64,000 nt of DNA from Alphaproteobacteria bacterium (GTDB lineage Bacteria; Pseudomonadota; Alphaproteobacteria; SHVV01), in contig OZ253470.1 of assembly GCA_965261735.1 (NCBI GenBank), positions 4,224,001 to 4,288,000 of the forward strand, given 5' to 3'. The notes under the pieces are model-generated. The model was not told where the DNA came from, ran no database searches, and was given only the letters and a program-made list of their open reading frames with translations. Each line of letters begins with the position of its first letter. Within the stretch, counting starts at the first letter, position 1. The position numbers and the translations under genes were made by a program. Below are positions 6,488 through 46,832 of the stretch, one piece after another.

Positions 6488-6712
6488 GTGACACCCGCCG
6501 TTCGCTCAACGCTCGATGTAGTCTTGTGGTTCCTCGACCGCGCCGCGTCGGCGGGCAGCCATCTGTCGGCGCGCCGGCTGCAATGCCTGCTGTTCATGGC
6601 TCAAGCGCGCTACGCGCGAGCCAACGACGGCCGCAAACTAATGCCGGCGACGTTCCTCGCCGCCGAGGCCGGGCCCATCGAACCCACGATTTACCACATC
6701 ATGGGGCACGGC
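6488..6712 (+). pseudogene. DUF4065/Panacea (SocA/GepA-like) domain protein, 3'-truncated and fused to an IS1595 remnant
   Basis: LDVVLWFLDRA...RRLQCLLFMAQARY...MPATFLAAEAGPIEPTIY pattern; from ~6713 the sequence matches IS1595-A. Confidence 0.65.
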
Positions 6713-6874
6713 GGCGGCGCAGGCCGCATCATCGGGGAAAAGTCGCTGGAACTCGGGTAGCGAATGCGGGAATGGGAGATCGGCGCGGTCGAGAACATCC
6801 ATGGCGCGCTCCCCTATATCCGGGTTGCGCCCATTCTAGCCCTAGCGGGTGTGGGTGTAAACCGGATAGGCAAG
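6713..6874 (-). mobile_element. IS1595-A left-end remnant (~160 bp)
   Basis: Matches the left end of the intact copy at 19781-20885 (1 SNP), including terminal IR CCGGATAGGCAAG. Confidence 0.92.
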
Positions 6875-6914
6875 AACATACATCCTCACAGGCGGAGTGT
6901 CACGGATAAGCAGG
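6875..6914 (-). mobile_element. IS1595-B left terminal 40 bp, at the 3' end of the last mrpD-like gene
   Basis: Reverse complement CCTGCTTATCCGTGACACTCCGCCTGTGAGGATGTATGTT matches 46833-46872 (1 SNP). Confidence 0.9.
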
Positions 6915-8624: not shown

Positions 8625-8856
8625 AGTGATCCTCGCGCCGCACCACCATCCGACGCAGTCCCTTGGCGAGTAGGACCAGAGTGACGCAGGCGACGAAGCC
8701 ATACAGGGCGTAAAAGCCCCAAAAGGCCTCCACCGGGTGCTCCGCGTGCCGATCGAAGGCGAAGTCGGCGAGCAGGAGGATCGCGCACAGCGCGTGAAGG
8801 GCGTACAGCAGGCGGCGTACGTTGGCCGGATTGTCGAAGAGATGCTTCTTGTCCAC
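8614..8856 (-). CDS. Small 2-TM membrane protein of the Mrp operon
   Basis: GTG start, (M)DKKHLFDNPANVRRLL...FYALYGFVACVTLVLLAKGLRRMVVRREDHYGD; overlaps the downstream mrpD-like gene. Confidence 0.75.
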   Translation of the reverse strand: MDKKHLFDNPANVRRLLYALHALCAILLLADFAFDRHAEHPVEAFWGFYALYGFVACVTLVLLAKGLRRMVVRREDHYGD

Positions 8857-8861
8857 CGCGC

Positions 8862-10346
8862 CTACTCGGCCACCGGAGCGAGCCCCGACAACAGCTCGAG
8901 GATCGGGCCGGGCCAGAGGAAGAGTGCGACGCAGCCGAGCGCCGTGAGCGACAACGGCACGACGCACATCGCCGGGGCTCCGCGGATGGCTACGCGCGCG
9001 GAACCTTCCGACACACGGTCGGCACCGAGGAAAGCGCGCACCACCATGGGCAGCAGGTAGCCCGCACTCAGCAAGGAGCCGAGCATCAGGACGCCGAGCA
9101 TGGCGTACTCGCCGGCATCCACCGTGCCCAGGGCAAGCTGCCATTTGCTCCACAGGCCGCCCAAAGGCGGCATGCCGATGATACTGAGGCTGGCCAGGGC
9201 GAAGGCCGTCATCGTGATCGGCATCCTCCGGCCGATGCCGCGCATTTCGCTCACCTCCGACTTTTGTGCGGCCAACATGATGGCGCCCGCGCAAAAGAAC
9301 AGGGTGATCTTGGCGAACGCATGGGTCGCGATGTGCAGCGCGGCGCCGCGCGTCCCCCAGCCGCTCGCGAGCATGGCGCCAAGCACGATGTAGGCGAGCT
9401 GGCTCACCGTCGAGTAGGCGAGGCGGAGCTTGAGGTTGTCCTGACGCAGCGCCACCAGTGCGGCGATCACCAGGGTTGCCGCGGCCACGTACATCATGAT
9501 GTCGGCGGCGGTGAGCCCGGCCAGCGTCTGCCAGCCGAAAATATAGAGGGACACTTTGAGGACCGCGAACACGCCGGCCTTAACCACGGCGACGGCGTGG
9601 AGCAGGGCGCTCACCGGCGTCGGCGCCACCATGGCGGCCGGCAACCAGCGATGGAATGGCATCAGCGCGGCTTTGCCGATGCCGAACACGTAGAGCACCA
9701 GAAGGAGGCCGACCGCGCCGCTTGCGGTATCGGCGGAGAAGATGCCGCCGCGGCTGAAGTCGAGAGTCCCTGCGAGCACCCACGTCCAGCCGACGGCGAG
9801 CAACAGGAAAGCGATCGAGGTACCGAGAAGGAGACCGAGATAGAGCCGCCCGGCGCGTCGTGCTTCGTCGGTGCCGGAGTGCGTGACCAGCGGGTAGGTC
9901 GAGAGCGTCAGCGCCTCGTAGAACAGGAACAGCGTCAACATATTGCCGGCGAAGGCCACGCCCATCGTGCTCGCCAGCGCGACCGCGAAATAGCTGTAAA
10001 ACCGAGTCTGGTTCGCCTCGCCATGGGCCCGCATGTAGCCGAAGGCGTAGACCGAGGTGAGTATCCACAGGAAACTCGCGACGAGCGCGAACAGCATACC
10101 GAGCGGCTCGACCTCGAAAGCGAAGGAGATCCCGGGGACGAGGTCGAACAGTTTCAGCGCGGGCCGGGTGCCCGCGGCGACCATCGGGTACAACGAGGCG
10201 ACGAGCGCAAACAGGGCCGCCGACGTCACCAGCGTCACCGCTTCGCGCACGTTGGGCCAGCGGCCGGTTAACGCGATAAGGCCTGCGCCCACCAGCGGTA
10301 CCAGGATCGCCAGCGCAATCGCGAAGCCGGGATCGAACGGTCTCAC
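8862..10346 (-). CDS. Mrp antiporter subunit D/A-like
   Basis: GKAALMPFHRWLPAAMVAPTPVSALLHAVAVVKAG, LRLAYSTVSQL. Confidence 0.9.
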   Translation of the reverse strand: MRPFDPGFAIALAILVPLVGAGLIALTGRWPNVREAVTLVTSAALFALVASLYPMVAAGTRPALKLFDLVPGISFAFEVEPLGMLFALVASFLWILTSVYAFGYMRAHGEANQTRFYSYFAVALASTMGVAFAGNMLTLFLFYEALTLSTYPLVTHSGTDEARRAGRLYLGLLLGTSIAFLLLAVGWTWVLAGTLDFSRGGIFSADTASGAVGLLLVLYVFGIGKAALMPFHRWLPAAMVAPTPVSALLHAVAVVKAGVFAVLKVSLYIFGWQTLAGLTAADIMMYVAAATLVIAALVALRQDNLKLRLAYSTVSQLAYIVLGAMLASGWGTRGAALHIATHAFAKITLFFCAGAIMLAAQKSEVSEMRGIGRRMPITMTAFALASLSIIGMPPLGGLWSKWQLALGTVDAGEYAMLGVLMLGSLLSAGYLLPMVVRAFLGADRVSEGSARVAIRGAPAMCVVPLSLTALGCVALFLWPGPILELLSGLAPVAE

Positions 10347-11821
10347 GGGGCGATCCCGAGGAGGGCCTGCGCGGCCCGGCCCGCCACCCCTAGCGTCAGC
10401 GAGGTATCGAGGCCGAAGTAGACGCTCGCCCCGGCCAAGAGCCAGATCGGGACCAGCATGGAGGGCGGCGCTTCTTGCGCCGCGCTAGCCTCGGCGGGGG
10501 GGTGGAAGTAGGCCGCCTCGACGACCCGCCAGACGTATCCGAGGGCGACGAGCGAGCTCAGCAGGACGACCACCGCTACCGGCCACGCGCCTTCCTCCAG
10601 GGCCGCCACCACGAGTGTCCACTTGCTCACGAATCCGACGGTGAAGGGCACGCCGATGAGGCTGAGACCGCCGACCACGAACGCCGACATGGTGAGCGGC
10701 ATGCGGCGGCCGAGCCCGCGCAAGGCGTCGAGGCTTACGCCGCCCGCGCGCAGTGCGACCGCGCCAAGGCACATGAACAACGCAGCTTTCGTCACCGCGT
10801 GGTTGAACAGATGGACGATCCCCGCGGTCAGGCCCGTGGTCGATGCGAGGCTGATGCCGGCGACGATGTAGCCGATCTGGGCCAGACTCGAATACGCGAG
10901 CAATCTCTTGACGTCGTTCTGGAACAACGCGACGAGCGAAGCTCCGAGCGCCGCCGCCAGGGCGAGCGGCAGCAGGATGGCGCCAAGTGCCATGGTTTCG
11001 AAGGCAAAGTCCGCGCCGAACAGGGTGAAGGTGAAGCGCAGCAGAACATAGACCGCGACCTTGGTGGCGGTGCCGGCGAGCAGCACGGCGACGGCCGAGG
11101 GCGCGTAGGCATAGGCGTTCGGGAGCCACAGGTGGAGCGGAAACAGCGCGATCTTGATGGCGATGCCGACGGTGAGGAAAGCGAAGGCGGCACGAACGGT
11201 CCGCGTGTCCGCGACCGGCGCCACGCGCTCGGCGAGATCGGCAATGTTGAGGGTGCCCGTCATCATGTACAGGAAGCCGATGCCGATGAGGATGAAGGTG
11301 GCCCCGATCGTGCCCATGATGAGGTAGCGGAACGCCGCCGTCAGCGCCCTGCGATCTTGGCCCATGCCAACCAGGACGTAAGCCGACAGCGAGGCGATCT
11401 CGAGGAACACGAAGAGGTTGAAGGCATCGCCCGTGATCGTGACGCCGAGCAGGCCTGCGAGGGCGAGGAGGTAGACGCAGTAGAAGCGGTGGTGCTGCGC
11501 CGCGGCGATCTCGGCGCCGACGCTGGCGCGGGCGAACGGCATGGTCACCGCGGCGATGCCGGCGACGACAACCAGCACGAAGGCGTCGACCGGGTCGACC
11601 CGGTACTCGATGCCCCACGGCACCGCCCAGCCGCCGAGCTCGTAGGAGATCACGCCCGTCTCGAGAACGCGGGCCAGCAGCCATAGCGCAATGGCGAAGG
11701 CCGTCCAGCTCGCCAGCGTCGCCAGCGGCCACGCCAGGGCGCCACGGCGGCTCAGCACGCACAGCGGTGCGCCCACAAGTGGCACCGCCACTTGCAATAT
11801 CGGCAGATGGTCGACGATCAC
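10343..11821 (-). CDS. mrpD: Mrp antiporter subunit D
   Basis: TGDAFNLFVFLEI, KIALFPLHLWLPNAY, KRLLAYSSLAQIGY. Confidence 0.9.
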   Translation of the reverse strand: MIVDHLPILQVAVPLVGAPLCVLSRRGALAWPLATLASWTAFAIALWLLARVLETGVISYELGGWAVPWGIEYRVDPVDAFVLVVVAGIAAVTMPFARASVGAEIAAAQHHRFYCVYLLALAGLLGVTITGDAFNLFVFLEIASLSAYVLVGMGQDRRALTAAFRYLIMGTIGATFILIGIGFLYMMTGTLNIADLAERVAPVADTRTVRAAFAFLTVGIAIKIALFPLHLWLPNAYAYAPSAVAVLLAGTATKVAVYVLLRFTFTLFGADFAFETMALGAILLPLALAAALGASLVALFQNDVKRLLAYSSLAQIGYIVAGISLASTTGLTAGIVHLFNHAVTKAALFMCLGAVALRAGGVSLDALRGLGRRMPLTMSAFVVGGLSLIGVPFTVGFVSKWTLVVAALEEGAWPVAVVVLLSSLVALGYVWRVVEAAYFHPPAEASAAQEAPPSMLVPIWLLAGASVYFGLDTSLTLGVAGRAAQALLGIAP

Positions 11822-12171
11822 GGTTCGTCGTCCAGGCGGATGATTTCGTCCTCCTCGACGCTGCCATAGGCCTCGCGGATGCGAACGATAAGGGCGAGCG
11901 CGAGTGCGGTGGTCGCCACGCCGACGACGATGGCGGTGAGAATGAGAACGTGGGGCAGGGGGTTTGAGTAGACCTCGGCGCCGCCGCCGACGATCGGAGC
12001 CGTGCCGCCGGCCACCTTGCCGACGCTGATGTAGAACAGGAAGACGGAGGTCTGAAAGATGTTGAGGCCGACGAGCTTCTTGACCAGGTTGCCGCGGGCG
12101 ACGACCGTGTAGAAGCCGGCCATCATCAGCACCATGACCACCCAGTAATTGAAGTGGCCGAGCACCGCCAT
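11818..12171 (-). CDS. mrpC: Mrp antiporter subunit C
   Basis: NLVKKLVGLNIFQ, NPLPHVLILTAIVVGVAT. Confidence 0.92.
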   Translation of the reverse strand: MAVLGHFNYWVVMVLMMAGFYTVVARGNLVKKLVGLNIFQTSVFLFYISVGKVAGGTAPIVGGGAEVYSNPLPHVLILTAIVVGVATTALALALIVRIREAYGSVEEDEIIRLDDEP

Positions 12172-12174
12172 CGC

Positions 12175-12591
12175 TCAGCGCGTGCGGCCGGCGAACGCGA
12201 AGAAAACGGCGACCATGACGGCGGCGACGGTGATACCGACGCCGAACTCGACCAGTAGGATGCCGAGGTGTTGGCCCTTGGCCGGTTCCGCGGCCAATAC
12301 GGAGTAGTCGAGATAGTTGCCGCCTAGCGCGAGTGCGACGATGCCGACACCGGCATAGATGAGCACACCCGTCGCAACCAGGATCTCTACGGCACCGTCC
12401 GGAGCGACCTGGCGCGCCCGCTCGATGCCGAAGACGAGGCCATACAAGATGAAGGCGGCCGCACAGATGACGCCAGCCTGGAATCCGCCGCCGGGCCCGA
12501 AGTCGCCGTGAAACTGGACGTACAGCCCGAACAGCAGAATGAAGGGAATCAGTATCTTGCTCACCACGCGCAGGACGAGGTGGTGCCTCAT
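12175..12591 (-). CDS. mrpB: Mrp antiporter subunit B
   Basis: HGDFGPGGGFQAG signature. Confidence 0.92.
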   Translation of the reverse strand: MRHHLVLRVVSKILIPFILLFGLYVQFHGDFGPGGGFQAGVICAAAFILYGLVFGIERARQVAPDGAVEILVATGVLIYAGVGIVALALGGNYLDYSVLAAEPAKGQHLGILLVEFGVGITVAAVMVAVFFAFAGRTR

Positions 12592-13172
12592 CGGTCCTGG
12601 CCCCGCGCCCGGCGGTGCCTCGCCCCGCCGATCAATAGCATGACACCGATACCGGCCGTAAAGATCACCACGACCTCGCCGAGCGTGTCGTAACCGCGAT
12701 AGCTCGCGAGCACGGCGGTCACCACGTTGGGGACGCCGGTCTCGGCCGGGCCGCGCTCGAGATAACGCGGGGCGACGTGCCGGTGCGCCGGCGCCGCCGG
12801 GTCGGCGAAGTCCGGCATGTCGAGGGTGCCGTAGAGCAGCGCCACGCCGGTGGCGCCGACGATGAGGAGCGGCAGCAGCGACGTCTGTACCGGGATTTTC
12901 TCACGCGCGCTGGTGAGGCCGAGCGTGGCGAACATCAGTACGGTCGTGATGCCGGCGCCCACGGCTGCCTCGGTGAAGGCCACGTCGACGGCATCCAGGT
13001 TCACGAACAGTGCCGCCATTACCAAGCTGTAAACGCTGAACAGCATGACGACGGCAACCAGATTGCGGAGCCGGATAACCGTCACCGCGACAACGAGAAG
13101 GAATACCAGCAACGCGATGTCGACTAGATAGGCGATGGCGGATCGTCCTTGGCCTCGGGCGCCTTGACCCAC
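12588..13172 (-). CDS. DUF4040/MrpB-like N-terminal subunit
   Basis: AVDVAFTEAAVGAG and NVVTAVLASYRGYDTLGE; start uncertain (GTG at 13172, or an ATC at ~13136 after AAGGA). Confidence 0.85.
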   Translation of the reverse strand: MGQGARGQGRSAIAYLVDIALLVFLLVVAVTVIRLRNLVAVVMLFSVYSLVMAALFVNLDAVDVAFTEAAVGAGITTVLMFATLGLTSAREKIPVQTSLLPLLIVGATGVALLYGTLDMPDFADPAAPAHRHVAPRYLERGPAETGVPNVVTAVLASYRGYDTLGEVVVIFTAGIGVMLLIGGARHRRARGQDR

Positions 13173-13465
13173 GGCCTTAGCCCGTTGAACAGGGCGGCCT
13201 TGGCCAGCGCATGCGTAGCGGTCGGGCTGGTGAAAAACAAAAATACGAGGATGAACAACAGCTTGACGCTGATCAGCGAGAGCCCGCTTTGAATCATGAG
13301 GCCAGCGACGATCAGCGCGATGGCCAAGGTATCGGTGATGCCTGCGGTGTGCAGCCGGGTGTAGAAGTCCGGCAGCCGCATCAGACCGATGCTACCGATC
13401 AGTAAGAAAACGCTGCCGGTGGTGAGCAGGATCCAGGTCAGAATGTCGCCGAGTTCCGCTGTCAT
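13124..13465 (-). CDS. mrpG: Mrp antiporter subunit G
   Basis: GLMRLPDFYTRLHTAGITDT, TSPTATHALAKA; ATG overlaps the mrpF stop. Confidence 0.92.
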   Translation of the reverse strand: MTAELGDILTWILLTTGSVFLLIGSIGLMRLPDFYTRLHTAGITDTLAIALIVAGLMIQSGLSLISVKLLFILVFLFFTSPTATHALAKAALFNGLRPWVKAPEAKDDPPSPI

Positions 13466-13761
13466 GGTGTCTCCAGCCGGCGCCAACGCTCCTCCTCGCG
13501 GCCCGCCTCGCCGAGGTCGCCAAACTCGAAGAACTTCAGCATTGCAACGGTGGCGATGAAGCTGAGCAGTGGGTAGATCAGAGCGATGTCGACAAAATGC
13601 GGCCGACCGGTCAAGAAGCCCATGACAATGACCAGAATCGTCGTTTTCGTCGTGAACATGTTGACGGCAAGGATGCGGTCGTAAACCGTCGGGCCGACGA
13701 CCGCGCGAAACAGCGTTAGCGTCATGGTCACGAGGATGATCGCCGTGGTAAGGGCGAACAT
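13462..13761 (-). CDS. mrpF: Mrp antiporter subunit F
   Basis: GPTVYDRILAVN, DIALIY. Confidence 0.9.
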   Translation of the reverse strand: MFALTTAIILVTMTLTLFRAVVGPTVYDRILAVNMFTTKTTILVIVMGFLTGRPHFVDIALIYPLLSFIATVAMLKFFEFGDLGEAGREEERWRRLETP

Positions 13762-14237
13762 CAGTCACGGCCCTCCATGGCGAGGACGCGACGATCCATC
13801 TCTCCGGTCGCAAGATCGTCCGCGAAACCGCCCTCCAGCGCGTGCACCAGCACCTCGTCGCGTTCCAGCAGCACGGCCACGGTGCCGGGCGTCAGCGTGA
13901 TCGAGTTGGCGTAGGTGACGCGGCCCACGGCGGTCCTCTGGCTCGGCACGAGCCGAATCAGGCGCGGGTCGATGGGCAGGCTGGGGGTTAGGATGCGGCG
14001 GGCGACGTCGAGATTGGCGCGCGCTATCTCGACGAACAGCCACGCCCAATAACGCAGCGCGTTGATCCCGAGATGAACGGGGTGGCCCTCGTGGTCGATC
14101 ACGTCCATCCGATGGGTAAGCGCGACAACCAAGGCGCACGACGCGATCCCGAGAATGATCGTCAGTGCCTCGTAATGCCCGGAAAACAAAAGCCATACGG
14201 CCAGTAGCACGACAAACAGACTTGCGGTACGCGTCAT
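13761..14237 (-). CDS. mrpE: Mrp antiporter subunit E
   Basis: ANSITLTPGT, VLVHAL. Confidence 0.92.
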   Translation of the reverse strand: MTRTASLFVVLLAVWLLFSGHYEALTIILGIASCALVVALTHRMDVIDHEGHPVHLGINALRYWAWLFVEIARANLDVARRILTPSLPIDPRLIRLVPSQRTAVGRVTYANSITLTPGTVAVLLERDEVLVHALEGGFADDLATGEMDRRVLAMEGRD

Positions 14238-19539: not shown

Positions 19540-21231
19540 ATGGCGTCTCCGGCCGTTGCCGAAAGTCCGGCTCCCGACATCAACTGGAACAATCTGTGGT
19601 GGATCGCGATCCTCCTGGTCGTCCTGATCGTGGCGATCCGCGTCGAGAACTTCTGGTTCCTCAACTTCATTCACGTCTTCGCCGGCCTTTTGTGGACGGG
19701 CATCGACCTTTTCATGGGTTTCGTGATCGGCCCGATCATGCGAAGTCTTGGCGCCGAGGCCCGCCGCGCCATGATCGTTCCTTGCCTATTCGGTTAACGC
19801 CCATGACCGCTACATGTAGGGTGCCACCACTCTCCCGAGTAAAGCTCGGCATAGGTTGGAGCAGAGGTGTCGCCCGCGATGCCGAGCAATGAGCGGAAGG
19901 CGTTGAACGGGTAGAACCGCCTGTTGAAGCGGAAGGTGAACTCGTTGAGGTAGGCTTGTAGGTGCTGGTGGCTAACGCCGTGGTGGATACCGATCAGCCA
20001 CGTCTTCAGGTTGGCGAAAACCAGATGGATGATCGGCAGGTATTGCTCGGCAACCTCTGGATCACCACACTCGGCAACAGCGAAGTGCTCATAGCCGCGC
20101 TTACCGAGGCCAGCATAGCCGCTCCAATCGTCAGTAACGATCAGCGATCGCGGCGCGACGGTGCTCTCGACGAACCCACAGAGCGACTCGGCGCTACGGT
20201 CGAGCACGACGGCGAGCCGAACGCGTCCGGCATAGCGTCCGTCTTTCCGGTTGTCGAGCTTGGTGCCCGGCTTTCGATGACGCACCTCGATGGCACAGGA
20301 GACGGGAACCTTGTGGTGAACACCACGGCCTTCCCCACGCGTTCGCCCGCCAACCCAGGTTTCGTCCACCTCAACATGGTTCTTGGGCTGTCCACCGATC
20401 CTGTCTTGGTTGGGCCGCACCATGCCCGAGCGGAGCTTGTGGAGAATTTGAAAGGCCGTCTCGTAGCGCGAAAGACCAAGTTGCCGCTGAAACTGCACGG
20501 CGGACATGCCGGGCGTCTGACTGGCGACCAGATAAGCGGCCCAGAACCAGACGTTCAGCGGAGTGTGGCTACGCTCCATCACTGTTCCCACCGTCAGCCC
20601 GGTGTTCTGGCGGCACTTGCGGCAGCGCAGGACGCCAGGGCGGTTTTCAAAGTGGAACGGCTCTCCCGCCGTGCCGCAGTGCGGGCAGGCAAAGCCGTCT
20701 CCCCAGCGGGCTTTCTCCAGGTAGGCGGCGCAGGCCGCATCATCGGGGAAAAGTCGCTGGAACTCGGGTAGCGAATGCGGGAATGGGAGATCGGCGCGGT
20801 CGAGAACATCCATGGCGCGCTCCCCTATATCCGGGTTGCGCCCATTCTAGCCCTAGTGGGTGTGGGTGTAAACCGGATAGGCAAGGATCGTTCGTCTCAT
20901 GCCGCGCATGCTCTTTATCATGCCGACCGTCTCTATTGTGGCGACGATGGCGGGCTGGTTCCTGGCCGTTCAAGCCGGGTACATCGATCTACCCTACCCT
21001 CAGCTGTGGTGGGTGATTGGCGCGCTCGCGATCGTCACCATCCTGACCGTTCAGGGGCTGGGCCTCCTCCTGCCGACCAATATCCGCGTTTATCTCGAGA
21101 TGCGCAGTGACCATCCCGACATGGACAAGGTCGGCCGCCTGATGCGCATCTACATGTTCGTGATCGCCTCGCAAGGCATCATGCAACTCGCCATCATCGT
21201 CATCATGACGCGATTTGCGTCCGGCCTGTAG
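19540..21231 (+). pseudogene. Multi-TM membrane protein split by IS1595-A
   Basis: Removing 19781-20885 and one TSD copy restores the frame ...ARRAMIVRLMPRMLFIMP... Confidence 0.88.
19781..20885 (-). mobile_element. IS1595-family element A (ISSod11-like), intact; transposase 19794-20813
   Basis: IRs CTTGCCTATYCGG, 8-bp TSD GATCGTTC (19773-19780 and 20886-20893); Zn ribbon CPHCG/CRKC, EVDE, TDD, YLNEFTFRFNRR. Confidence 0.96.
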
Positions 21232-22715: not shown

Positions 22716-23903
22716 GTGACTCCCGGCGGGCACGGAGCGCGCAGTAGCGCAGCCGCGACAAAGCGGAGGAGGGTGGTCTACGGCTTGCTCGCTATTTGTT
22801 TGGCGGTCGTCGTGGGCTTCGCACTCGCCGAAGTCGGGACGCGCGCACTTGCGCCCGCGAGCGGCAGTGCCGGTACGCTCGACCCGGGGCTATTCCGCTA
22901 CGATGCGCGCCTCGGCTGGCGGTTGTCGCCGAACTGGTCGGGCAGGCACGTTCACGAGGCTTATTCCGCCGCCTACGCCACCAATCGCCATGGCTTTCGC
23001 GGCACGTTCGAGCGCGCCCGCGCACCCGGCACCACGCGCCACGCGTTTCTGGGCGACAGCTTCACCTTCGGCTTCGGCGTCGATGACGGCCACACGTTCG
23101 TCGACCTGTTGAACGCGGGTGGCCGCGGCGTGTCCTACCTCAATTTCGCCGTGCCGGGCTACAGCACGGATCAGCAAGCGCTGCTGCTCGCCGATACGGT
23201 CCTGGATTTTGCGCCCGAATCGGTTCACGTCGTCGTTTATCTCGGCAACGACATTTTTGACAATCAGCGCGACATCCCGATCCAGGGAAACGCGCGCAAG
23301 CCCCGTTTCGTCAACAGTCCCGGTGGCCTTGCGCTCGAGGGCGTACCGGTGCCGCGGGGTGCGCTACCGGTGGCTGACGCGGCTGGCGGCTTGCGCGCTA
23401 TCATTTTCGGCGAGGACGCATCCCTCGGCCCGCTCGGGAGCTGTGTTCGGCTGGTCCGCACTGTACCGGCGGGCCGAGCCCCTTCTTCACAGGCCGAGCG
23501 ACCTCGACGCTCACTTCGAGCGCAACTTCGCCGAGGCCCTCGATCTCTTCGCGGCAATCACCGTGCAGGCGCGAGATGGGGCGGCGGCGGCCGGCGCGAG
23601 CTTCGGGCTCGTCCTCATGCCGGGGCCGTCGTTCATCACCAGGCCGCGCTCCGTTTCGGCACGGTTCCAGAATTATCTACGGCGCACGATCGTTGAGCGT
23701 AGCGAACGACTCGGCATCCCTGTCGTCGATCTCGCCGGGCTGTTGCGCGAGCGCCATGAGCGCGCACCGGGAGTCTGGTTTTTCCCCGCGAGGGCCACCT
23801 CACCGTGGAGGGGCATTGCGTTGTCGCCGATGAATTGTTCCGGCGCATGTTCGGCGGCGGCCAGGGCAGCGACAACGCGCCTGGCCAGACTTGCACGCCC
23901 TAG
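22716..23903 (+). pseudogene. SGNH/GDSL-like hydrolase with two frameshifts (~23440, ~23789)
   Basis: FLGDSFTFG, NFAVPGYSTDQ, YLGND in the first frame; continuation in a second frame; EGHLTVEGH block V in a further shifted frame ending TAG 23901-23903. Confidence 0.78.
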
Positions 23904-24110
23904 GCCACCACGAAAACGCGCGGCGAGGCCGGAAACGGCTAGGCCGCGAACGCCCCGTAAGCTACAAATAGAGTTCCAGACCGAGCCACCGGGTTCCACC
24001 AGCGTCCTCTTAGGCGGCGACAGCCGTGGCTGGCGCTCCACGGCTCCGGGCGAGTCGCGGAGGGCTTGCACCACCGTCGGCTCGGCTATGGCGGCGGAAC
24101 GGGGGGCGAG

Positions 24111-24560
24111 ATGCCAACGTACGTCAATCCAAACAAGTGCGACGGGTGCAGGGCGCTCGACCGCCCGGCATGCATGTACATCTGCCCGATGGACCTGATG
24201 ACGCTCGATACGGCGACCGGCAAGGGGTTCAACCAGGAGCCCGACCTGTGCTGGGAGTGCTATTCCTGCGTCAAGATCTGCCCCAACAGCGCCATCGACA
24301 TGCGCGGCTATGCCGACGTGATGCCTATGGGGGCGGCGCTCAAGCCGGTGCGCGGCACACGCTCCATCATGTGGACCGCCCAGTATCGAGACGGCCGCAT
24401 CAAGCAGTTCAAGCTGCCGATCCGGAGCACGCCGTGGGGTTCGATCGTTCCCTTTCCGGATGACGCGCGGCCGAGCCGGATGGACGTCAAGTCGACGGCC
24501 CTCTTCGGCGAGGAAAAGTATCTCGGCGTGGACCGGCTTCCCGCGCCCGGGTCCGCGTAG
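24111..24560 (+). CDS. aprB: Adenylylsulfate (APS) reductase beta subunit
   Basis: MPTYVNPNKCDGC...ACMYICPMDLM...NQEPDLCWECYSCVKICP...RGYAD. Confidence 0.95.
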   Translation: MPTYVNPNKCDGCRALDRPACMYICPMDLMTLDTATGKGFNQEPDLCWECYSCVKICPNSAIDMRGYADVMPMGAALKPVRGTRSIMWTAQYRDGRIKQFKLPIRSTPWGSIVPFPDDARPSRMDVKSTALFGEEKYLGVDRLPAPGSA

Positions 24561-24585
24561 TCCGGCGCGGCGTTTGGAAGGACCA

Positions 24586-26454
24586 GTGGATCAGCCTGAA
24601 ACCGAGGTCGTCGAGTGCGACGTCTTGATCGTCGGTGGCGGCATGTCCGGCTGCGGGGCTGCCTACGAGACCGCATTCTGGGCCAAGGAACAGGGCCTGC
24701 GCACCGTCGTGGTCGAGAAGGCGGCGATGGAGCGCAGCGGGGCCGTGGCCATGGGCCTCTCGGCCATCAACTGCTACATGGGCATGAAATGGGGCGAGAA
24801 CACGCCTGAGGATTTCGTTCGCTACGTCCGCAACGACCTCATGGGCCTGTCCCGCGAGGACTTGGTCTACGACATCGCCCGCCACGTCGACTCGGCGGTC
24901 CACATGTTCGAGGACTGGGGCCTGCCGTTCCTCAAGACCGAGGAGGGACGTTACGTCCGCGAGGGCCGCTGGCAGGTCATGATCCACGGCGAGTCCTACA
25001 AGCCCATCGTCTCCGAGGCGGCGAAGAAGGCGGTCGGCAACGACAACGTTTATCAGCGCATTTTCATCTCCCATCTGCTGAAGGACAGGCGCAACCCCAA
25101 CCGCATCGCCGGCGCAGTCGGCTTCAGCGTCCGCGACCCGAAGATCTATGTGTTCAAGGCGCGCGCGGTCGTGTGCGCCTGCGGCGGGGCAACCAACGTG
25201 TGGCGCCCGCATGCGGTGGGCGAAGGCCTGGGGCGGATCTGGTACTCGGTCTTCAACACGGGCTCGGTCTACAAGCTCATGCTCAACGCCGGGGCGGAGC
25301 TCAGCCAAATGGAGCACCGCCTGGTGCAGACCCGTTTCAAGGACGGCTATGGGCCGGTGGGGATGTGGTTCCTGCTGTTCAAATCGGTCGTCAAGAACGC
25401 CTACGGCGAGCGCTATGACGAGACCCGCGCGGCCGAGCTGGAGAAGTGGGCGCCTTACGGAACTGCGCATCCGGTGCCGACCCCATTGCGCAACCACCAG
25501 ATGCTGCAGGACATCTTCGCGGGGCGCGGCCCGCACTACATGCGCACCGATGAAGCCCTGCAACGGCTGTACGAGGGGCAGACGCCGGAGCGCATCCGCG
25601 AGATCGAGAGCGAGGCCTGGGAGGACTTCCTCGACATGACGATGTCCCAGGCCCTGCTATGGGCCGCCCACGGAATCGATCCGGCCGAGGACCCCTCCGA
25701 GCTCTCGATCACCGAGCCCTATCTGATGGGCTCGCACGCGTCGGGCTGCGGTGCCTGGGTAAGCGGTCCCGATGACGTCTCGCCGCCCGAATACCGCTGG
25801 GGCTACAACCGGATGACGACCGTCGAGGGCTTGTTCGCGGCCGGTGATGGCGTGAGTGGATCGGCGCACAAGTTCTCGTCGGGGTCCTTCACCGAGGGCA
25901 GGCTCGCAGGGAAAGCCGCGGTCGCCTACATCGCCGACCTGGGCGAGAGGCCCGAGGTTGACGACGCCGAGGTCGGCCGCATCACGCGCGAGCTTTGGCG
26001 CCCGGTGGAGGTCGCCGCGCAGGCGGGCCCCGCGACCTCGCACGAGGACGTCGAGGCCAAGTATTTTCTACCCAAGCTCGGGCTGTTCCGGCTGCAGAAA
26101 ATCATGGACGAGTACGCCGCTGGCCCGGGCGCCTACTACACGACCAATGAAGCAACCCTGAAACGCGGACTCCAGCTACTGGCCGAACTCAGGGCGGACA
26201 TGGAGAACCTGGGCGCGCGCGACCTCCATGACCTGCTGCGGTGCTGGGAACTTCGCGACCGCGTTCTGTGCGCGGAGTGCCACATCCATCACGTGCTGTT
26301 TCGCGAAGAGACGCGCTGGCCAGGCTATTTGTACCGCTCCGACCACCCCAAGCTCGACGAGGAGAACTGGAAGGTGTTCGTGAACTCGCGCTACGACGCC
26401 GATAGCGATACCTGGCACATGTCGAAGAAGCCCTTCATTCCCCTCATCGACTGA
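24586..26454 (+). CDS. aprA: APS reductase alpha subunit
   Basis: GGGMSGCG FAD motif, RSGAVAMGLSAINCY, REGRWQVMIHGESYK, RFKDGYGPVG, EDFLDMT, MGSHAS, HKFSSGS, REETRWPG; GTG start after GAAGGA. Confidence 0.95.
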   Translation: MDQPETEVVECDVLIVGGGMSGCGAAYETAFWAKEQGLRTVVVEKAAMERSGAVAMGLSAINCYMGMKWGENTPEDFVRYVRNDLMGLSREDLVYDIARHVDSAVHMFEDWGLPFLKTEEGRYVREGRWQVMIHGESYKPIVSEAAKKAVGNDNVYQRIFISHLLKDRRNPNRIAGAVGFSVRDPKIYVFKARAVVCACGGATNVWRPHAVGEGLGRIWYSVFNTGSVYKLMLNAGAELSQMEHRLVQTRFKDGYGPVGMWFLLFKSVVKNAYGERYDETRAAELEKWAPYGTAHPVPTPLRNHQMLQDIFAGRGPHYMRTDEALQRLYEGQTPERIREIESEAWEDFLDMTMSQALLWAAHGIDPAEDPSELSITEPYLMGSHASGCGAWVSGPDDVSPPEYRWGYNRMTTVEGLFAAGDGVSGSAHKFSSGSFTEGRLAGKAAVAYIADLGERPEVDDAEVGRITRELWRPVEVAAQAGPATSHEDVEAKYFLPKLGLFRLQKIMDEYAAGPGAYYTTNEATLKRGLQLLAELRADMENLGARDLHDLLRCWELRDRVLCAECHIHHVLFREETRWPGYLYRSDHPKLDEENWKVFVNSRYDADSDTWHMSKKPFIPLID

Positions 26455-26480
26455 CCGGGCGGGGAGGAGCGGCACGGCGC

Positions 26481-28343
26481 GTGACCATGGACCGGCCGGC
26501 AAAGGAAGTGGTGGCGTGCGATGTCCTGATCGTGGGCGGCGGCATGGCCGGTTGCGGCGCCGCGTACGAGGCGGCGCGCGTAGCCAGGGACAAGGGCCTT
26601 AGGACGGTTCTGGTCGACAAGTCGACCATCGCTCGCAGCGGTGCGGTCGGCATGGGCCTGTCGACGATCAACTGCTACATCGGCGCCGAAGGCGGCGAGA
26701 ACACGCCCGAGGACTTCGTCCGTTACGTGCGCAACGACCTCATGGGTATCTCGCGCGAAGACCTAGTCATGGATATCGCGCGCACCGTGGACGCGGCGGT
26801 CCATCTGTTCGAGGACAAGGGTCTCAAGTTTGCCTCGGGCGGCGAGAACGGGCGTTACGCGCGCGCGGGCCGCTGGCAGGTCAAGATCGAAGGCGACTCG
26901 TACAAGCCGATCGTGGCCGACCTCGCCCGCGAGGCCCTCGGCGAGGACAACCTGTTCGAGCACGTCTTCATCTCCCATCTGCTCAAGGACAGGCGTGACC
27001 CGAACCGCATCGCCGGCGCCGTTGGCTTCGGTTTGCGCGAGCCCAAGATTTACGTCTTCACCGCCCGCGCGGTGATCTGCGCGTCCGGCGGCGCGACCGA
27101 CGTCTGGCGCCCGCACCGAATGAGCGAAGGCCTCGGCCGGTATTGGTACGCCGCGTTCAACTCGGGCTCGGTCTACCGGCTCATGCTCGAGGCCGGGGCC
27201 GAGATGAGCCAGATGGAGCACCGCCTCATCCAGACCAGGTTCAAGGAGGGCTACGGCCCCGTGGGCATGTGGTCGCTGCATCAGCGGGCGGCGGCCGAGG
27301 GCGTGTTTGGAGACGGCGCGGGAGAGGGCGACGACGGGTGGTTGCCATACGGCGCGGCCGATCCGACCCCAACGCCGGTTCGCAACTTCCAAATGATGCG
27401 AGGCATCTTCGCCGGGCGAGGTCCCTTCACCATGAGGGCCGACGAGGCGTTCCAGAGGCTCTATCGGGGCCAATCGCCGGAAAGCGTTGTCGGGCTCGAT
27501 GGGTGGGGCGACTTCCTCGACGGTACCACCAAGGCACAGGCGCTCGATTGGGCGGCCCAGCCCGTCGATCCCTCGGCGCCGGCGGAAGAGGTCTATCTGA
27601 GCGAGCCCTATCTGCTCGGCGCCCATGCGTCCGCGTGCGGCGCCTGGGTGAGCGGACCCGAGGACATCGCGCCGCCCGAATACCGTTGGGGCTACAACCG
27701 GATGACCACGGTTGCCGGGTTGTTCACCGCCGGCGACGGGGTTGGCGGCGCGGCCCACAAGTTCTCGTCCGGCTCGTTCGCCGAGGGCTCACTCGCTGGG
27801 AAAGCCATTCTCGCCTACGTTGCCGACCTGGCGGAAACGCCGGAGATCGACGACGGTGAGGTCAACCGGATCCAAGAGGATATCTGGGCGCCCTTCGCCG
27901 CCTACGAGGAGGGCCGCGGCGCCTCGTCGCGCGACGATGTCAACCCGAACTATCTCTTCCCCAAGATGGGGCTCCTGCGGCTGCAAAAGATGATGGACGA
28001 GTATGCCGGCGGCCCAGGCGCTTACTACCGGGTCAACGATCCGACGCTCGTGCGCGGGCTCGAGCTCCTTCAAACGCTCAAGGAAGACCTCGACAAGCTC
28101 GCCGCGCGCGACGTGCGCGAGCTACTGCGCTGCTGGGAGTTACGCGACCGCGTGCTGTCCGCCGAGTGCCACGTGCGCCACGTGTTGTTCCGCAAGGAGA
28201 CACGGTGGCCGGGCTACCTCTTTCGCCCCGACTACGCCAGCCTCGACGACGACAACTGGAAGGTGTTCGTCAACTCGCGCTACGACGCCGCCTCGGGCAC
28301 CTGGGAGATGTCGAAGAAGCCGGTAATTGCGGTGATCGACTAA
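26481..28343 (+). CDS. Second, diverged APS reductase alpha-like subunit (AprA')
   Basis: Full-length colinear paralogue of the upstream aprA with substitutions in conserved motifs (RAGRWQVKIEGDSYK, MWSLHQR, GDFLDGT, LGAHAS). Confidence 0.9.
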   Translation: MTMDRPAKEVVACDVLIVGGGMAGCGAAYEAARVARDKGLRTVLVDKSTIARSGAVGMGLSTINCYIGAEGGENTPEDFVRYVRNDLMGISREDLVMDIARTVDAAVHLFEDKGLKFASGGENGRYARAGRWQVKIEGDSYKPIVADLAREALGEDNLFEHVFISHLLKDRRDPNRIAGAVGFGLREPKIYVFTARAVICASGGATDVWRPHRMSEGLGRYWYAAFNSGSVYRLMLEAGAEMSQMEHRLIQTRFKEGYGPVGMWSLHQRAAAEGVFGDGAGEGDDGWLPYGAADPTPTPVRNFQMMRGIFAGRGPFTMRADEAFQRLYRGQSPESVVGLDGWGDFLDGTTKAQALDWAAQPVDPSAPAEEVYLSEPYLLGAHASACGAWVSGPEDIAPPEYRWGYNRMTTVAGLFTAGDGVGGAAHKFSSGSFAEGSLAGKAILAYVADLAETPEIDDGEVNRIQEDIWAPFAAYEEGRGASSRDDVNPNYLFPKMGLLRLQKMMDEYAGGPGAYYRVNDPTLVRGLELLQTLKEDLDKLAARDVRELLRCWELRDRVLSAECHVRHVLFRKETRWPGYLFRPDYASLDDDNWKVFVNSRYDAASGTWEMSKKPVIAVID

Positions 28344-28476
28344 GGGCGCGGAAAGGGCGTCTACCCATAAGTGCAGTTTGAATCTCAGTTTGGTTGGACT
28401 TTGACCGGTAAGCTCGCGCAATAAGCGTCGGTGCCGTTCTCTTTACCCGTCTTGTACGTGCCAATTCCAGTCCTTC

Positions 28477-29855
28477 GGTCGTGTCCCAGGACGTGGTGTA
28501 GGAGTTGTTGGAGCCTCTGTTAGCTGTGGGTAGGCGGCTTGCCGTAGCGACCGCCGAGAGTCTGGCGTAGGCAAGCCGGCTATCCACAGCGGAGGCCATC
28601 GCGGTTCCGGTTTAGGGTTGGGCTAGTGCAAACCAACCTAACCCGAAGGAGAACCACGATGACCCAGGACATGATGACCCTGCGCGCGCTTTTGGAGAAG
28701 AGCTCCGATGCCGATCTGCTTTGCGAGATGATCGGCTTCACGGCCGAGCCGCTGATGGCACTGGAGGTTGAGGGCCTGACCGGCGCCGCTCACGGCGAGC
28801 GCTCGGCGGATCGTATCACCCACCGCAACGGCGACCGCGACCGGTCCTGGGAGACGCGGGCCGGCACGGTCGAGCTGAAGATCCCGAAGCTGAGGAAGGG
28901 GAGCTACTTCCCGGGCTTCCTGGAGCCGCGGCGGATGGCCGAGAAGGCGCTGGCTGCGGTGATCCAGGAGGCCTACATCCAGGGCGTGTCGACCCGCTCG
29001 GTCGACGACCTGGTGCAGGCCATGGGCATGTCGGGCGTCTCCAAGAGCCAGGTCTCCAGGCTGTGCGGCGAGATCGACGATAAGGTCAACGGCTTCCTCG
29101 ATCGATCGCTGGAGGGCGACTGGCCCTATCTGTGGCTCGACGCAACCTATGTGAAGGTGCGCGAGGCCGGGCGCATCGTCTCGGTCGCGGTGACCGTGGC
29201 TGTGGCCGTCAACGACCAGGGCCGCCGCGAGGTCCTGGGCATGGCGATCGGCGCGTCTGAGGCCGAGGCCTTCTGGACCGAGTTCCTGCGCTCGCTGGCC
29301 CGGCGCGGGCTGCGTGGCGTGAAGCTGTTGATCTCCGACGACCACAAGGGTCTGAAGGCCGCCGCGACCCGGATCCTCGGCGCCACCTGGCAAAGATGCC
29401 GCGTGCACTTCGCCCGCAACCTGCTGGCCCATGCCGGCCGCCAGGGCCGGCGCGTCGTCTCCGCCTTCGTCGCCACCGCCTTCGCCCAGGAGGACGCCGA
29501 CAGCGCGAAGGCCCAGTGGCGTCAGGTCGCCGACCAGCTCAGGCCCAAGGTGCCCAAGCTGGCAGTTCTCATGGACGAAGCCGAGCACGACGTCCTCGCC
29601 TACATGACTTTCCCCAAGGAGCACCGCCAGAAATTGCACTCCACAAACCCGATCGAACGGCTCCATGCCGAGGTCAAGCGCCGCACCAACGTCGTCGGCA
29701 TCTTTCCCAACGAAGCCGCCATCACACGGCTCGTCGGCGCCATCCTTCTCGAGCAGAACGATGAGTGGGCCGTCTCAAGGAGATACATGACGCTGGAATC
29801 CATCGCTCCGCTGAGCGATGGTGTCCCCATCACGCTGCCCACCGTGGCAGCCTGA
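28477..29855 (+). mobile_element. IS256-family element (transposase 28659-29855); right end apparently deleted
   Basis: Left end GGTCGTGTCCCAGGACGTGGTGTAG; [31 protein letters not shown]; no matching right IR seen after the stop. Confidence 0.9.
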
Positions 29856-30137: not shown

Positions 30138-31277
30138 TCAGCGGGATCGGCGCCTTTTAGGTTGCGCGTCGCGAGCTTCTGCGAGCACCGTACCCTCGAT
30201 GTTGGCGTCGGTCAGGTTGGCCTGGAACAAATCCGCGTCCGAGAGGTCGGCGCCGCTCAGGTTGGCGGGCCACATCTGCGCTTTCTCCTCGCCATCCGCT
30301 CCTTTGAGCTCAACGGGTCCCAAATCCGCGTGGGACAGTTTGGCGCCCCGTAGATTGGCGTTGCTCAGGTTGCATCCCCTTAGGTCGGCATATCTGAGAT
30401 CGCCACCGGTTAGGTTCGAGTCTTGAAGATTGCAAAGAACGAACTGACCCGACGAGAGGTTGGCGCCGGCCAGGCTGCAACCGCTGAGGTCGGCGCCGCT
30501 CAGGAAGACGCCGGCGAGATCGCCGCTGGAAAAGTCCTGGCCCGCCAACTCGGCGCGGCACCCTACGGTGCCCGAAGTATCCTCCCACAACGCATGATCG
30601 CGCAGCATGACCTGGATGTCGAAGGGCAGGCGGCCGGTATTGCGGCTCACTTCCGCTCCCTGCAGATCCACGCCATTGAGCTCAACCTCGGCGAGGATGG
30701 CGCCACGCAGGTTCGCGCCCTGCAAGCGCGCCTGGCTGAGTACGGCGCGGCGTAGGTTAGCGCCGGTTAAGTTGGCGTCCTTGAGGCGCGCCGACTCCAG
30801 GTTGGCGTCGGTCAGGTCGACGCCACGCATGTCGGCGCTGGCGAGCGACGCCTCTTTGAAGTTGGCCTTTATCATCGACGAATTGCGCAGATTGGCATGG
30901 TTGAGTTTGGCCTTCTCGAAGTCTGATTCGTCGAGCATGGCCTCGGAGAGGTCGGCGCCGCGCGCGACGATCTCGGCGGAAAGGAGGGCACCTGCCCGCA
31001 GGTCGGCGTCGCGCAGAATGGCTCCCTTGAGCTTGGCGCCGTGCAAGCGGATACCGCGCAAATCGGCGCGCGCGAAATTGGCTCCGCTTGTCAGTAACGA
31101 TCAGCGATCCCGGCGCGACGGTGCTCTCGACGAACCCACAGAGCGACTCGGCGCTACGGTCGAGCACGACGGCGAGCCGAACGCGTCCGGCATAGCGTCC
31201 GTCTTTCCGGTTGTCGAGCTTGGTGCCCGGCTTTCGATGACGCACCTCGATGGCACAGGAGACGGGTATAGCGTCAT
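30138..31277 (-). pseudogene. Pentapeptide-repeat protein; 5' part disrupted by an IS1595-A internal fragment
   Basis: Many A(D/N)Lxx repeats at 30138-31089; orphan SD plus ATG (MTLYP) at 31277 beyond the IS fragment. Confidence 0.82.
31090..31266 (-). mobile_element. IS1595-A internal fragment lacking both ends
   Basis: Matches transposase codons ...VSCAIEVRHRKPGTKLDNRKDGRYAGRVRLAVV...LIVTD (1 SNP). Confidence 0.92.
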
Positions 31278-32861: not shown

Positions 32862-32907
32862 GCGCGTGCCGGCCCGGGGTGAAGGGTGTGGCGCCGCGGA
32901 CCGGGCG

Positions 32908-34148
32908 ATGACCGCGCTGACGCGCCGGGCGCTTGCCGCGCTCGATGCCGGCGACCCGCTCGCCGGCTTTCGCCGCGCCTTCGCACTGCCCAAGGGCGTG
33001 ATCTACCTCGACGGCAATTCGCTCGGGCCGCTGCCGAGAGACGCCGCGCGTCGGCTCAACGAGGTCGTGCGCCGCCAATGGGGCGACGATCTGATCCTAA
33101 GCTGAATCGCCACCAATGGATCGATTGGCCGGCGCGAGTCGGCGACAAGATCGCGCGTTTGATCGGCGCCACTCGGGGCGAGGTCGTGGTCGCCGATTCG
33201 ACGTCGATCAATCTGTTCAAGCTGCTCGCGGGGGCGCTGCGTGCGCGCCCCAAACGCTCCGTCATCCTGTCCGAGCAGGGCAACTTCCCGACCGATCTTT
33301 ATGTCGCCCAGGGATTGACCGAGCTCCTTGGCGGCCGTCACGAGCTGCGGCTGGCCGCGAGCGAGGAGATTACGGCGAGCATCGACGAGGACGTTGCCGT
33401 CATCATGTTGACCCACGTCGACTACCGCTCGGGCGCCATGCACGACATGGCGGCCGTCAACGCGGCCGGCCACGCGAAGGGCGCGCTGATGCTGTGGGAC
33501 CTGTCGCATAGTGCCGGTGCCGTGCCGCTCGACATGCGGGCCGCCGGCACCGATCTGGCGGTCGGTTGCGGCTACAAGTACCTGAACGGCGGCCCCGGGG
33601 CGCCGGCCTTCCTGTTCGTCGCCGAGCGTCTGCAGGACGGGTTGCACCAGCCGATCACCGGGTGGATGGGACACGCCGAGCCCTTTGCCTTCGCGCCCGA
33701 CTATCGCCCGGTCACGGGGATCTCCCGCAATCTCGTCGGTACGCCGCCGATCCTCGCGCTTGCCGCGCTCGAGACCGGCGTCGATGTCCTCTTGCGTGCC
33801 GATCCCAGCGCGCTGCGCGAGAAATCGCTCGCTCTCACCGACCTCTTCATGCGCCTCGTCGAGCAAGAATGCCCGGGCCATGGGTTCACCATCGCAACCC
33901 CGCGCGAGACGGCAACACGCGCGAGCCAAGTGGCGCTACGCCACGACGAGGGCCTTCCCATCATGCAGGCGCTGATCGAAGCAGGCGTCATCGGTGATTT
34001 TCGCGCGCCCGACCTGCTACGGTTCGGCTTCGCACCGCTCTACAATCGCTACACCGACGTCTGGGATGCGGTGGCGGCGTTGTCCGAGATCATGCGGACG
34101 CGAGCGTGGGACAGCCCCGCCTTTCGCCGGCGCGCCGTCGTGACCTGA
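32908..34148 (+). pseudogene. kynU: Kynureninase with 1-bp deletion near 33103
   Basis: IYLDGNSLG, DSTSINLFK, NFPTDLY, WDLSHSAG, GCGYKYLNGGPG; AGCTGAAT needs one more G to read LILSWN. Confidence 0.9.
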
Positions 34149-34165
34149 GGCAAACGCAAAGAGTC

Positions 34166-35020
34166 GTGCCGAAATCCCGCAAAGCCGGCAGCACCGGCGA
34201 TAGCCTTCCGGACGGCGCCCACACCGATTTCGGCGACTCGCTGAGCTACGCCGACTATCTCGGCCTCGGCTCGCTGCTGTCGAGCCAGCACCCGCTCTCG
34301 GAGCGCCACGACGAGCTCCTGTTCATCATTATCCACCAGACGACGGAGCTGTGGTTGAAGCTCGCCCTTCATGAGCTCGGGGCGGCAACGGCGTCGATTC
34401 GCGAGGACCGGCTGAAGCCCGCCTTCAAGATGCTGGCACGCTTCTCGCGCATTCAATCGCAGCTCATCCAGTCGTGGGACGTGCTGTCGACCTTGACGCC
34501 CTCGGACTACATGACCTTTCGTCACGTTCTCGGCCGCGCCTCTGGCTTTCAGTCGCACCAATACCGGCTGATCGAGTTCGCGCTCGGCAACAAGAACCGC
34601 GCCCTGTTGGCGCCGCACCGCCACGACGCCGCCGTCCTGAGCCGCCTCGATGCGGCGCTCAACGCGCCGAGCCTCTACGACGAGGTGATCCGCCTGCTGG
34701 CGCGGCGCGGGTTCGCACTCGCGCCCGCCTGCGTCGAGCGCGATTGGAGCGCGCCCTACGCGGCGGACGCCTCCGTCTCCGGCGCCTGGCTCGAGGTTTA
34801 CCGCGATACCGCGACCCATTGGGACCTTTATGAGCTCGCCGAGGAGCTGGTCGATCTCGAGGATTGGTTCCAGCAATGGCGCTTTCGCCACGTCACCACG
34901 GTCGAGCGCATCATCGGCCACAAGCGCGGCACCGGAGGCACCGCTGGCGTGAGCTACTTGCGAAAGGCGCTGGATGTGCGCTTCTTCCCTGAATTGTGGG
35001 ACGTGCGCACGGCTCTCTAG
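34166..35020 (+). CDS. kynA: Tryptophan 2,3-dioxygenase
   Basis: [53 protein letters not shown]. Confidence 0.95.
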
Positions 35021-46757: not shown

Positions 46758-46832
46758 CGCCCGAGCCGTGACCTCGGTAGCACCTAAATCGATTGCTCTG
46801 CCACGACACCTGCAGCCTAGCACAAAATACAA

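Follow-up and report, generated by a model that had tools for sequence, protein, structure and literature searches.

The gene aprA, which encodes the alpha subunit of adenosine 5'-phosphosulfate (APS) reductase, is a standard marker of sulfur cycling and is treated as representing one enzyme with one function. Here we describe a locus in which an iron-sulfur beta gene, aprB, is followed by two alpha genes in tandem, aprA and a diverged paralogue that we call aprA'. The locus occupies positions 24,111 to 28,343 of a 64,000-nucleotide stretch of contig OZ253470.1 (positions 4,224,001 to 4,288,000 of the forward strand; GenBank assembly GCA_965261735.1, Alphaproteobacteria bacterium), which as a whole is called the window below. 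An earlier note, made from the letters of this stretch, had already pointed to the doubled alpha gene.

Canonical AprA (family TIGR02061) is known from structures of the Archaeoglobus fulgidus (1JNR, 2FJA) and Desulfovibrio gigas (3GYX) proteins; it is a three-domain flavoprotein with conserved motifs for flavin adenine dinucleotide (FAD), encoded in a cluster led by aprB. Residues are numbered below as in A. fulgidus unless stated otherwise. In the account of Meyer and Kuever (2008, PMC2211403) the active centre consists of N74, W234, R265 and H398, while E141 and D361 contact the sulfate of APS through water molecules, R265, V273, G274, Y95 and H446 contact the phosphate and ribose, and the adenine is clamped by R317 and L278. 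The same source describes a pre-formed channel with a strictly conserved hydrophobic cluster (Y95, W144, W234, F261, V273, G274, F277, L278 and F448) and, in its section 10, a helical domain that forms the interface between heterodimers.

A relative with another substrate is the APSR-like reductase of Methanothermococcus thermolithotrophicus (8A8O), which acts on 3'-phosphoadenosine 5'-phosphosulfate (PAPS); a few substitutions in its loop 104–123 are proposed to have switched the enzyme from APS to PAPS, and Gln-A145 is said to clash with the 3'-phosphate (Jespersen et al. 2023, PMC10322725). The PAPS reductase is the only alpha in its cluster, whereas AprA' is a tandem second copy. To our knowledge it is the single case of a dissimilatory APS reductase scaffold retuned to another substrate. 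Some sulfur oxidisers have two separate aprBA loci, each copy with its own aprB and the copies belonging to different lineages through lateral transfer. They resemble the present case in having more than one AprA per genome, and differ from it in that the alphas described here are sister paralogues in tandem behind one aprB. The concept of Apr lineages I and II is set out in PMC5099947. A full-text literature search, with subscription journals outside its coverage, returned no account of aprB-aprA-aprA' or of a diverged second aprA, and the arrangement is apparently undescribed.

Two alpha genes behind one aprB

AprA' is an old and conserved second alpha subunit that selection has maintained. 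All three genes are open and uninterrupted on the forward strand and, as the earlier note had described, one aprB is followed by two full-length alpha genes. The sole beta gene of the cluster, aprB (24111..24560, 149 amino acids), scores 190.5 bits against TIGR02060 (cut-off 135.65). It is followed after 25 nucleotides by aprA (24586..26454, 622 amino acids, GTG start), a canonical alpha with 941.9 bits against TIGR02061, and after a further 26 nucleotides by aprA' (26481..28343, 620 amino acids), which reaches 796.7 bits; both alphas exceed the NCBIfam equivalog cut-off for aprA of 641.75. A Shine-Dalgarno-like GGAGGAG, read directly at 26464..26470 on the forward strand, stands 10 nucleotides before GTG 26481 and 16 before ATG 26487, and the true start of aprA' could be either; the GTG of aprA is preceded by GGAAGGA. 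The two alphas agree at 405 of 624 aligned positions (65%), and AprA' matches A. fulgidus AprA (2fja_A) with E = 4e-202 in HMMER. AprA carries every canonical active-site and channel residue that we tabulated. In AprB, eight cysteines are invariant across a 43-row alignment, and the tryptophan of its CWEC motif presumably occupies the place of A. fulgidus Trp-B48.

Discarding the reading would have been warranted, according to the earlier note, if AprA' were unique to this assembly with a dN/dS near 1; it is not unique. A search of 5.8 billion clustered proteins (clusters at 90% identity) matched AprA' to P0001 (100%), P0002 (87%), P0003 (74%, from a Kiloniellales metagenome-assembled genome, MAG), P0004 (73%), P0005 and P0006 (both 71%), P0007 (67%) and P0008 (66%), with ordinary AprA at 66% identity or below, and a second search with the most divergent A' member added only P0078. 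The A' family is real but rare, comprising nine such clusters. The longest contig is equally long for P0004 and P0010, and likewise for P0003 and P0011. A scan of genome contigs gave 78 loci, three of which have the same gene order: L001 (JACZQZ010000056, a Proteobacteria MAG), L002 (JBHICX010000132, a Kiloniellales MAG) and L003 (OZ251446, an Alphaproteobacteria MAG chromosome). Among the fetched loci, no others have a first AprA that falls in the AprA clade of the window; counting the window, aprB-aprA-aprA' is found in four of four such genomes, and the arrangement is common to a small clade of Alphaproteobacteria. The window AprA is 82–87% identical to the first alpha of L001–L003, while orthologous A' proteins are 60–87% identical between assemblies. 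Two other candidates for a doubled aprA, L047 and L066, were rejected, a single gene having been wrongly split in counting in each.

In the main tree (IQ-TREE, 34 rows, LG+C20+F+G4) the ten A' sequences form a clade with support 100/100 and their partner AprA sequences another with 100/99, the two being sisters at 98/90, and the branching order within A' broadly parallels that within A. The pattern is consistent with a single duplication in the common ancestor, both copies being inherited together from then on, and a quick 57-row tree agrees. An eight-taxon codon tree placed A' inside the A group beside the L003 AprA; it has no support values and was given no weight, but there is some doubt about exactly where the duplication node falls.

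The duplication is an old one. The note had described long stretches of near-identical DNA and taken them to suggest a local duplication; in a codon alignment, however, aprA and aprA' are 72% identical, their longest exact run is 20 nucleotides and their best 30-codon window is 84% identical. Third-position identity is 0.49–0.59, the genome having about 87% G+C at third positions. The stretches that look near-identical are conserved protein motifs and not the mark of a fresh copy, and in the tree the duplication is older than the split between the four genomes. Gene conversion between the window genes was considered and, at that third-position identity, none was seen. In L001 (8025–11875) the third-position identity of the two alpha genes reaches 0.77 over the N-terminal FAD domain, the highest off-diagonal value and one that exceeds orthologous A–A comparisons, against 0.61 in the capping domain, a weak hint of partial gene conversion that spared the capping domain.

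Codon models indicate that A' is under purifying selection. The ratio of nonsynonymous to synonymous substitution (omega, dN/dS) under GY+F3X4 in IQ-TREE is approximately 0.036 for A and 0.058 for A' with four taxa, and 0.033 and 0.061 with three. Nei-Gojobori (NG86) estimates over the same genome pairs are 0.11–0.15 for A and 0.24–0.28 for A' against L001 and L002, and 0.15–0.19 and 0.39–0.46 against L003. Within the same genome pair, A' has about double the dN of the A next to it, and both are far below neutrality. A gene in decay would show a dN/dS near 1, and the values found bear out the earlier hint that aprA' is under selection.

Residues kept and replaced in AprA'

Every motif change listed in the earlier note is present in AprA' (REGRWQVMIHGESY to RAGRWQVKIEGDSY, MWFLLFK to MWSLHQR, AWEDFLD-MT to GWGDFLDGT, and MGSH to LGAH), as are the motifs that it listed as kept (INCY, TRFK, PTPxRN, GxH and HKFSSGS). 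The numbering that it gave for the lost Glu and Met is also right: alignment to 2fja_A, with A. fulgidus positions counted by hand on HMMER alignments, places them at Glu-A141 and Met-A365. Sections 10–12 of PMC2211403 leave Met-A365 unnamed and name its neighbour Asp-A361, which the window AprA' keeps. The step from MGSH to LGxH, and with it M395L, is nothing out of the ordinary, since D. gigas AprA (3gyx) reads LLGSH. The rewritten capping-domain loop, Gly/Asp-rich and with a four-residue deletion in the window AprA', belongs only to the sub-lineage of the window and P0002 and not to all A'.

The window AprA' keeps N74, Y95, W144, Q145, W234, R265, V273, G274, L278, R317, D361, H398, H446 and F448. 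All four residues of the active centre are among these, N74, W234, R265 and H398 being N64, W222, R253 and H382 in its own numbering. The changes are E141A, M147K, H149E, E151D, S/A225R, F277S, F279H, F280Q, K281R, H319F, E360G, M365G/T with a one-residue insertion, M395L and S397A. In this it departs from the canonical channel, with Ser for F277 in the hydrophobic cluster and Ala for E141 among the water-mediated contacts; the other cluster residues and D361 are retained.

The same division between kept and replaced positions runs through the clade. We compared the ten A' sequences with 115 rows of canonical AprA (114 for the test of conserved columns). W144, W234, R265, V273, G274, H398, H446, F448 and the FAD motifs are kept in all ten A', R317 in nine, L278 in eight, and Y95 and N74 in seven each; N74, present in the window, gives way to Ser in L001 and to Asp in P0006 and L003/P0078. 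Lost from all ten are E141 (A, D, N or K), H149 (D, E or V), F277 (S, T, P, Y or H) and H319 (F or Y), and all ten have gained an Arg at position 225. Among the canonical rows, E141 is present in 111 of 115 and H149, F277 and H319 in 114 each, while Arg 225 occurs in none, so that the substitutions are not the common variants of ordinary AprA that would have undone the earlier note's reading. F280 has become Q, S, A, P or D, and the M365 region G, H or Q plus T, across A'. The replaced channel set thus comprises E141, M147, H149, F277, F280, H319 and the segment 360–366, with the new Arg 225. Set against canonical AprA, AprA' differs in following a canonical alpha gene in a cluster that has a single beta gene for both, and in the replacement of E141, M147, H149, F277, F279, F280, H319, E360 and M365 and the gain of Arg 225; these replacements are absent or nearly absent from the 115 canonical rows.

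Of 282 columns conserved at 93% or more in canonical AprA, 173 are kept in all ten A' and 28 have strongly diverged. The capping domain has more than its share of the diverged columns (11 of 60, against 17 of 222 elsewhere; Fisher odds ratio 2.7, p = 0.026), those of the FAD domain cluster at positions 141–159 and 61–79, and only one of the 47 conserved columns of the helical domain has diverged.

Two groups of sequences depart from this pattern. The most diverged A' lineage, L003 (11894–13792) with P0078, sits on a branch of 0.78. Here Asp stands in place of Asn-A74, His of Tyr-A95 and Glu of Asp-A361, RSGAV reads HGGPV and TRFK reads PRFK; yet the frame is open and the sequence is 93% conserved between the two sources. 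The lineage represents either a further functional shift or relaxed constraint. Odd residues also occur in five otherwise canonical AprA (P0030, P0050, P0076, P0081 and P0018), four of which have G, A, T or V at E141, with Y at F277 in P0018. The invariance of E141 outside the A' clade is accordingly not absolute, although these entries may contain sequencing errors.

The Methanothermococcus PAPS reductase can be compared at the same positions. Both proteins are AprA-derived alphas with catalytic residues kept and a substituted ribose-facing loop, and the AprA' model superposes on 8A8O with a TM-score of 0.80 at 31–32% identity. The methanogen loop 104–123 corresponds in the alignment to A. 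fulgidus 141–149, which is changed in A', and its R118, K124 and N126 align to E141, M147 and H149, all altered in A' too. Methanogen K120, R121 and S122, basic or small residues that are proposed to give the enzyme its preference for PAPS by holding the 3'-phosphate, correspond to Q143, W144 and Q145, where the window AprA' has R131, W132 and Q133, the Trp and Gln being retained; some other A' sequences have R, D or A in place of Gln-A145. Because W144 and Q145 are kept, AprA' is not filed with the PAPS reductase, and the identification of the window AprA' as such an enzyme, considered as a candidate, is unsupported.

We modelled AprA' with AlphaFold2 on a 129-row alignment, an earlier 19-row model having been discarded for its low predicted local distance difference test score (pLDDT 57). 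The retained model has a pLDDT of 80.4 and a predicted TM-score of 0.87, and Foldseek aligns it to 2fja_A with a TM-score of 0.91 (50% identity) and to 3gyx_A with 0.90, from which the FAD-binding, capping and helical domains of AprA are predicted to be intact. Membership of the succinate dehydrogenase/fumarate reductase flavoproteins was tried and rejected (best score 171.6 bits against a cut-off of 587); against structures of those enzymes the TM-score is 0.6–0.7 and identity 15–19%. Runs predicting the AprA'/AprB complex with FAD and two 4Fe-4S clusters, made for this pair alone, gave 0.10, 0.65 and 0.04 against a mark of 0.32 and are counted on neither side of the question of binding.

What AprA' may do

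The reading that we put forward, with confidence evenly poised, is that AprA' is a functional FAD-binding alpha paralogue that arose by an ancient tandem duplication, has been kept in aprB-aprA-aprA' and has a changed pocket and preference. One duplication of aprA in an alphaproteobacterial lineage would have produced aprA', which would then have been retained with aprA and the single aprB as a three-gene unit. AprA' would pair with AprB for electron transfer, like AprA, and would use the same N5-sulfite adduct chemistry, while its remodelled ribose-side and channel-wall pocket would give it a nucleotide or sulfonucleotide preference, or kinetics, different from those of AprA. The one beta gene might serve two alpha-beta isoenzymes or mixed alpha/alpha' tetramers, and the well-kept helical domain would permit alpha-alpha' contacts. 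We prefer a working flavoenzyme to a scaffold because A' has strictly preserved its FAD site, its N5 centre and the residues that bind the nucleotide, and because it is under strong purifying selection; and since the channel-wall and ribose-side residues are consistently replaced, AprA' is probably not doing exactly the job of AprA. The Methanothermococcus PAPS reductase, with changes in the same loop, is a precedent for such a switch in specificity.

Several observations weigh against this reading. Asn-A74 is replaced by Ser or Asp in three A' lineages (L001, P0006 and L003/P0078), the window keeping Asn; this residue holds the isoalloxazine and contacts the sulfate, and its loss in Pyrobaculum has been read as a sign of non-function (PMC2211403). 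Phe-A277, a member of the strictly conserved hydrophobic cluster, is gone from every A'. The pLDDT of the AprA' model falls below 50 only at 55–62, 214–225, 257–270 and 335–351, and these segments are the flavin- and substrate-site loops with many A'-specific changes; the low values could come from the missing cofactor or from an alignment dominated by canonical sequences, and need not mean disorder. Measured from the duplication node, A tips lie at 0.16–0.25 and A' tips at 0.38–1.01 substitutions per site, so that A' evolves two to four times faster than A, the L003/P0078 branch (0.78) being extreme. Synonymous sites are saturated and biased, which makes the omega values approximate, and pairwise maximum-likelihood dN/dS in Biopython was unstable (0.03–0.79), the IQ-TREE codon model being used instead. 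With Trp-A144 and Gln-A145 kept in the window AprA', a simple switch to PAPS is not indicated. Finally, sat, aprM and qmo are all absent from the window and from the 10 kb around the locus in L001–L003.

Some of these observations would suit a dead or weakened pseudo-enzyme, kept for a structural or regulatory role in an alpha/alpha'/beta2 hetero-oligomer with AprA and AprB. The helical interface domain is the best conserved part of A', with its single diverged column in 47, while Asn-A74 is lost in three of ten lineages, E141 and F277 are lost in all, and A' is the faster of the two paralogues. A mere scaffold, however, would have no need of R265, H398, W234, H446, F448, V273, G274 and the FAD motifs, all invariant in ten of ten A', nor would it be expected to show an omega of 0.06 over the whole gene or an adenine clamp kept at R317 in nine and at L278 in eight; we consider this explanation unlikely. 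The earlier note had offered three functional options, and its non-catalytic partner is the one that the sequences lead us to favour least, because W234, R265, H398, H446, F448 and the FAD motifs do not vary among the ten A'. AprA' might instead have left nucleotide chemistry altogether, as a sulfite dehydrogenase independent of adenosine monophosphate (AMP), in which water, admitted by a more polar and open channel, would resolve the FAD-sulfite adduct, or as an enzyme of some other anion. The loss of E141 and the change of the hydrophobic channel wall at F277, F280 and the M365 region to polar or small residues are in keeping with this, but the binders of phosphate, ribose and adenine are retained (R265, V273, G274, Y95 in seven of ten, H446, R317 and L278), and we judge it distinctly improbable. 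That AprA' is a superfluous copy on its way to being lost, or an artefact of assembly through collapsed strain variants, is hardly credible: the surroundings are rich in insertion sequences (IS) and hold at least one frameshifted gene, but four independent assemblies have the same gene order, orthologous A' are 60–87% identical, A' is monophyletic at 100/100, omega is 0.06, the frame of 620 codons is open, and the two alphas are only 72% identical in their DNA.

Beyond a retuned paralogue, we entertain, tentatively and as the less probable outcome, that AprA' founds a new functional subfamily that shares AprB and uses another co-substrate, either a different nucleotide or sulfonucleotide, for instance 3'-phosphoadenosine 5'-phosphate (PAP) or PAPS, or sulfite without AMP. 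Were this so, aprB-aprA-aprA' would be a two-headed system in which two sulfur reactions are coupled to one electron-transfer subunit. Quite apart from that outcome, if selection keeps a second alpha whose substrate channel is altered, some marine or host-associated Alphaproteobacteria would run two APS-reductase-type activities from one operon, and aprA surveys would be merging a functionally distinct paralogue with the canonical gene. AprA' would also be a second, naturally paired case of a retuned scaffold. Because the ancestral form stands next to the derived one, specificity can be tested residue by residue, and AprA' is a clear and cheap experimental target. As to physiology, AprBA and Sat in related marine symbionts are thought to oxidise sulfite from taurine and other sulfonates (PMC10356861). 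By analogy, the oxidation of sulfonate-derived sulfite is a plausible frame here; no feature of the window ties A' to sulfonates.

Surroundings of the locus

Conservation of the neighbourhood does not extend beyond aprB-aprA-aprA', the flanks differing in the window, L001, L002 and L003. The only sulfur-related neighbour seen in the four contexts is in L003 (7471–8889, reverse strand), upstream of the three genes, where a metallo-beta-lactamase fold is fused to a rhodanese in a persulfide-dioxygenase-like gene; a metallophosphoesterase gene (8663–9493) sits between it and aprB.

Neighbouring genes in the window are broken, as the earlier note had remarked. Directly upstream of aprB a GDSL/SGNH-hydrolase-like gene (22716–24100) is split over two overlapping frames (22716–23696 and 23119–24198) whose out-of-frame tails are rich in Arg; a frameshift has probably made it a pseudogene, and the native promoter region of aprB may be affected. 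A scan of 23400–28700 for promoters and terminators was uninformative, with no promoter-like site and one terminator-like site inside aprA', fewer than in shuffled sequence.

The IS load of the window is very high, with at least ten transposase genes or fragments (19794–20813, 28626–29855, 30757–31245, 46732–47841, 50405–51247, 51554–52780, 56439–57413, 59388–60344, 60426–62242 and 62871–63890). They include four IS1595/ISXO2-like copies and a fragment, two of IS256/Mutator type, and one each of DDE_Tnp_1, IS110 and IS21 (rve and IstB); an IS256-type gene begins 283 nucleotides past the aprA' stop. The pattern resembles that of genomes in which IS are expanding.

Elsewhere in the window, an aerobic CO-dehydrogenase-type cluster (AAA ATPase, FAD subunit, 2Fe-2S subunit, large molybdopterin subunit and CoxG) stands beside a seven-gene Mrp/Mnh-type cation/proton antiporter operon (together 886–14237), and adjoining genes for kynureninase and tryptophan 2,3-dioxygenase (32886–35020) form a kynurenine pathway module. 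The region from 50000 to 60000 looks like an acquired island, because its G+C content is lower (0.59–0.62 against about 0.66), IS lie at its edges and within it, and it carries DM13, cytochrome b561 and NnrS genes.

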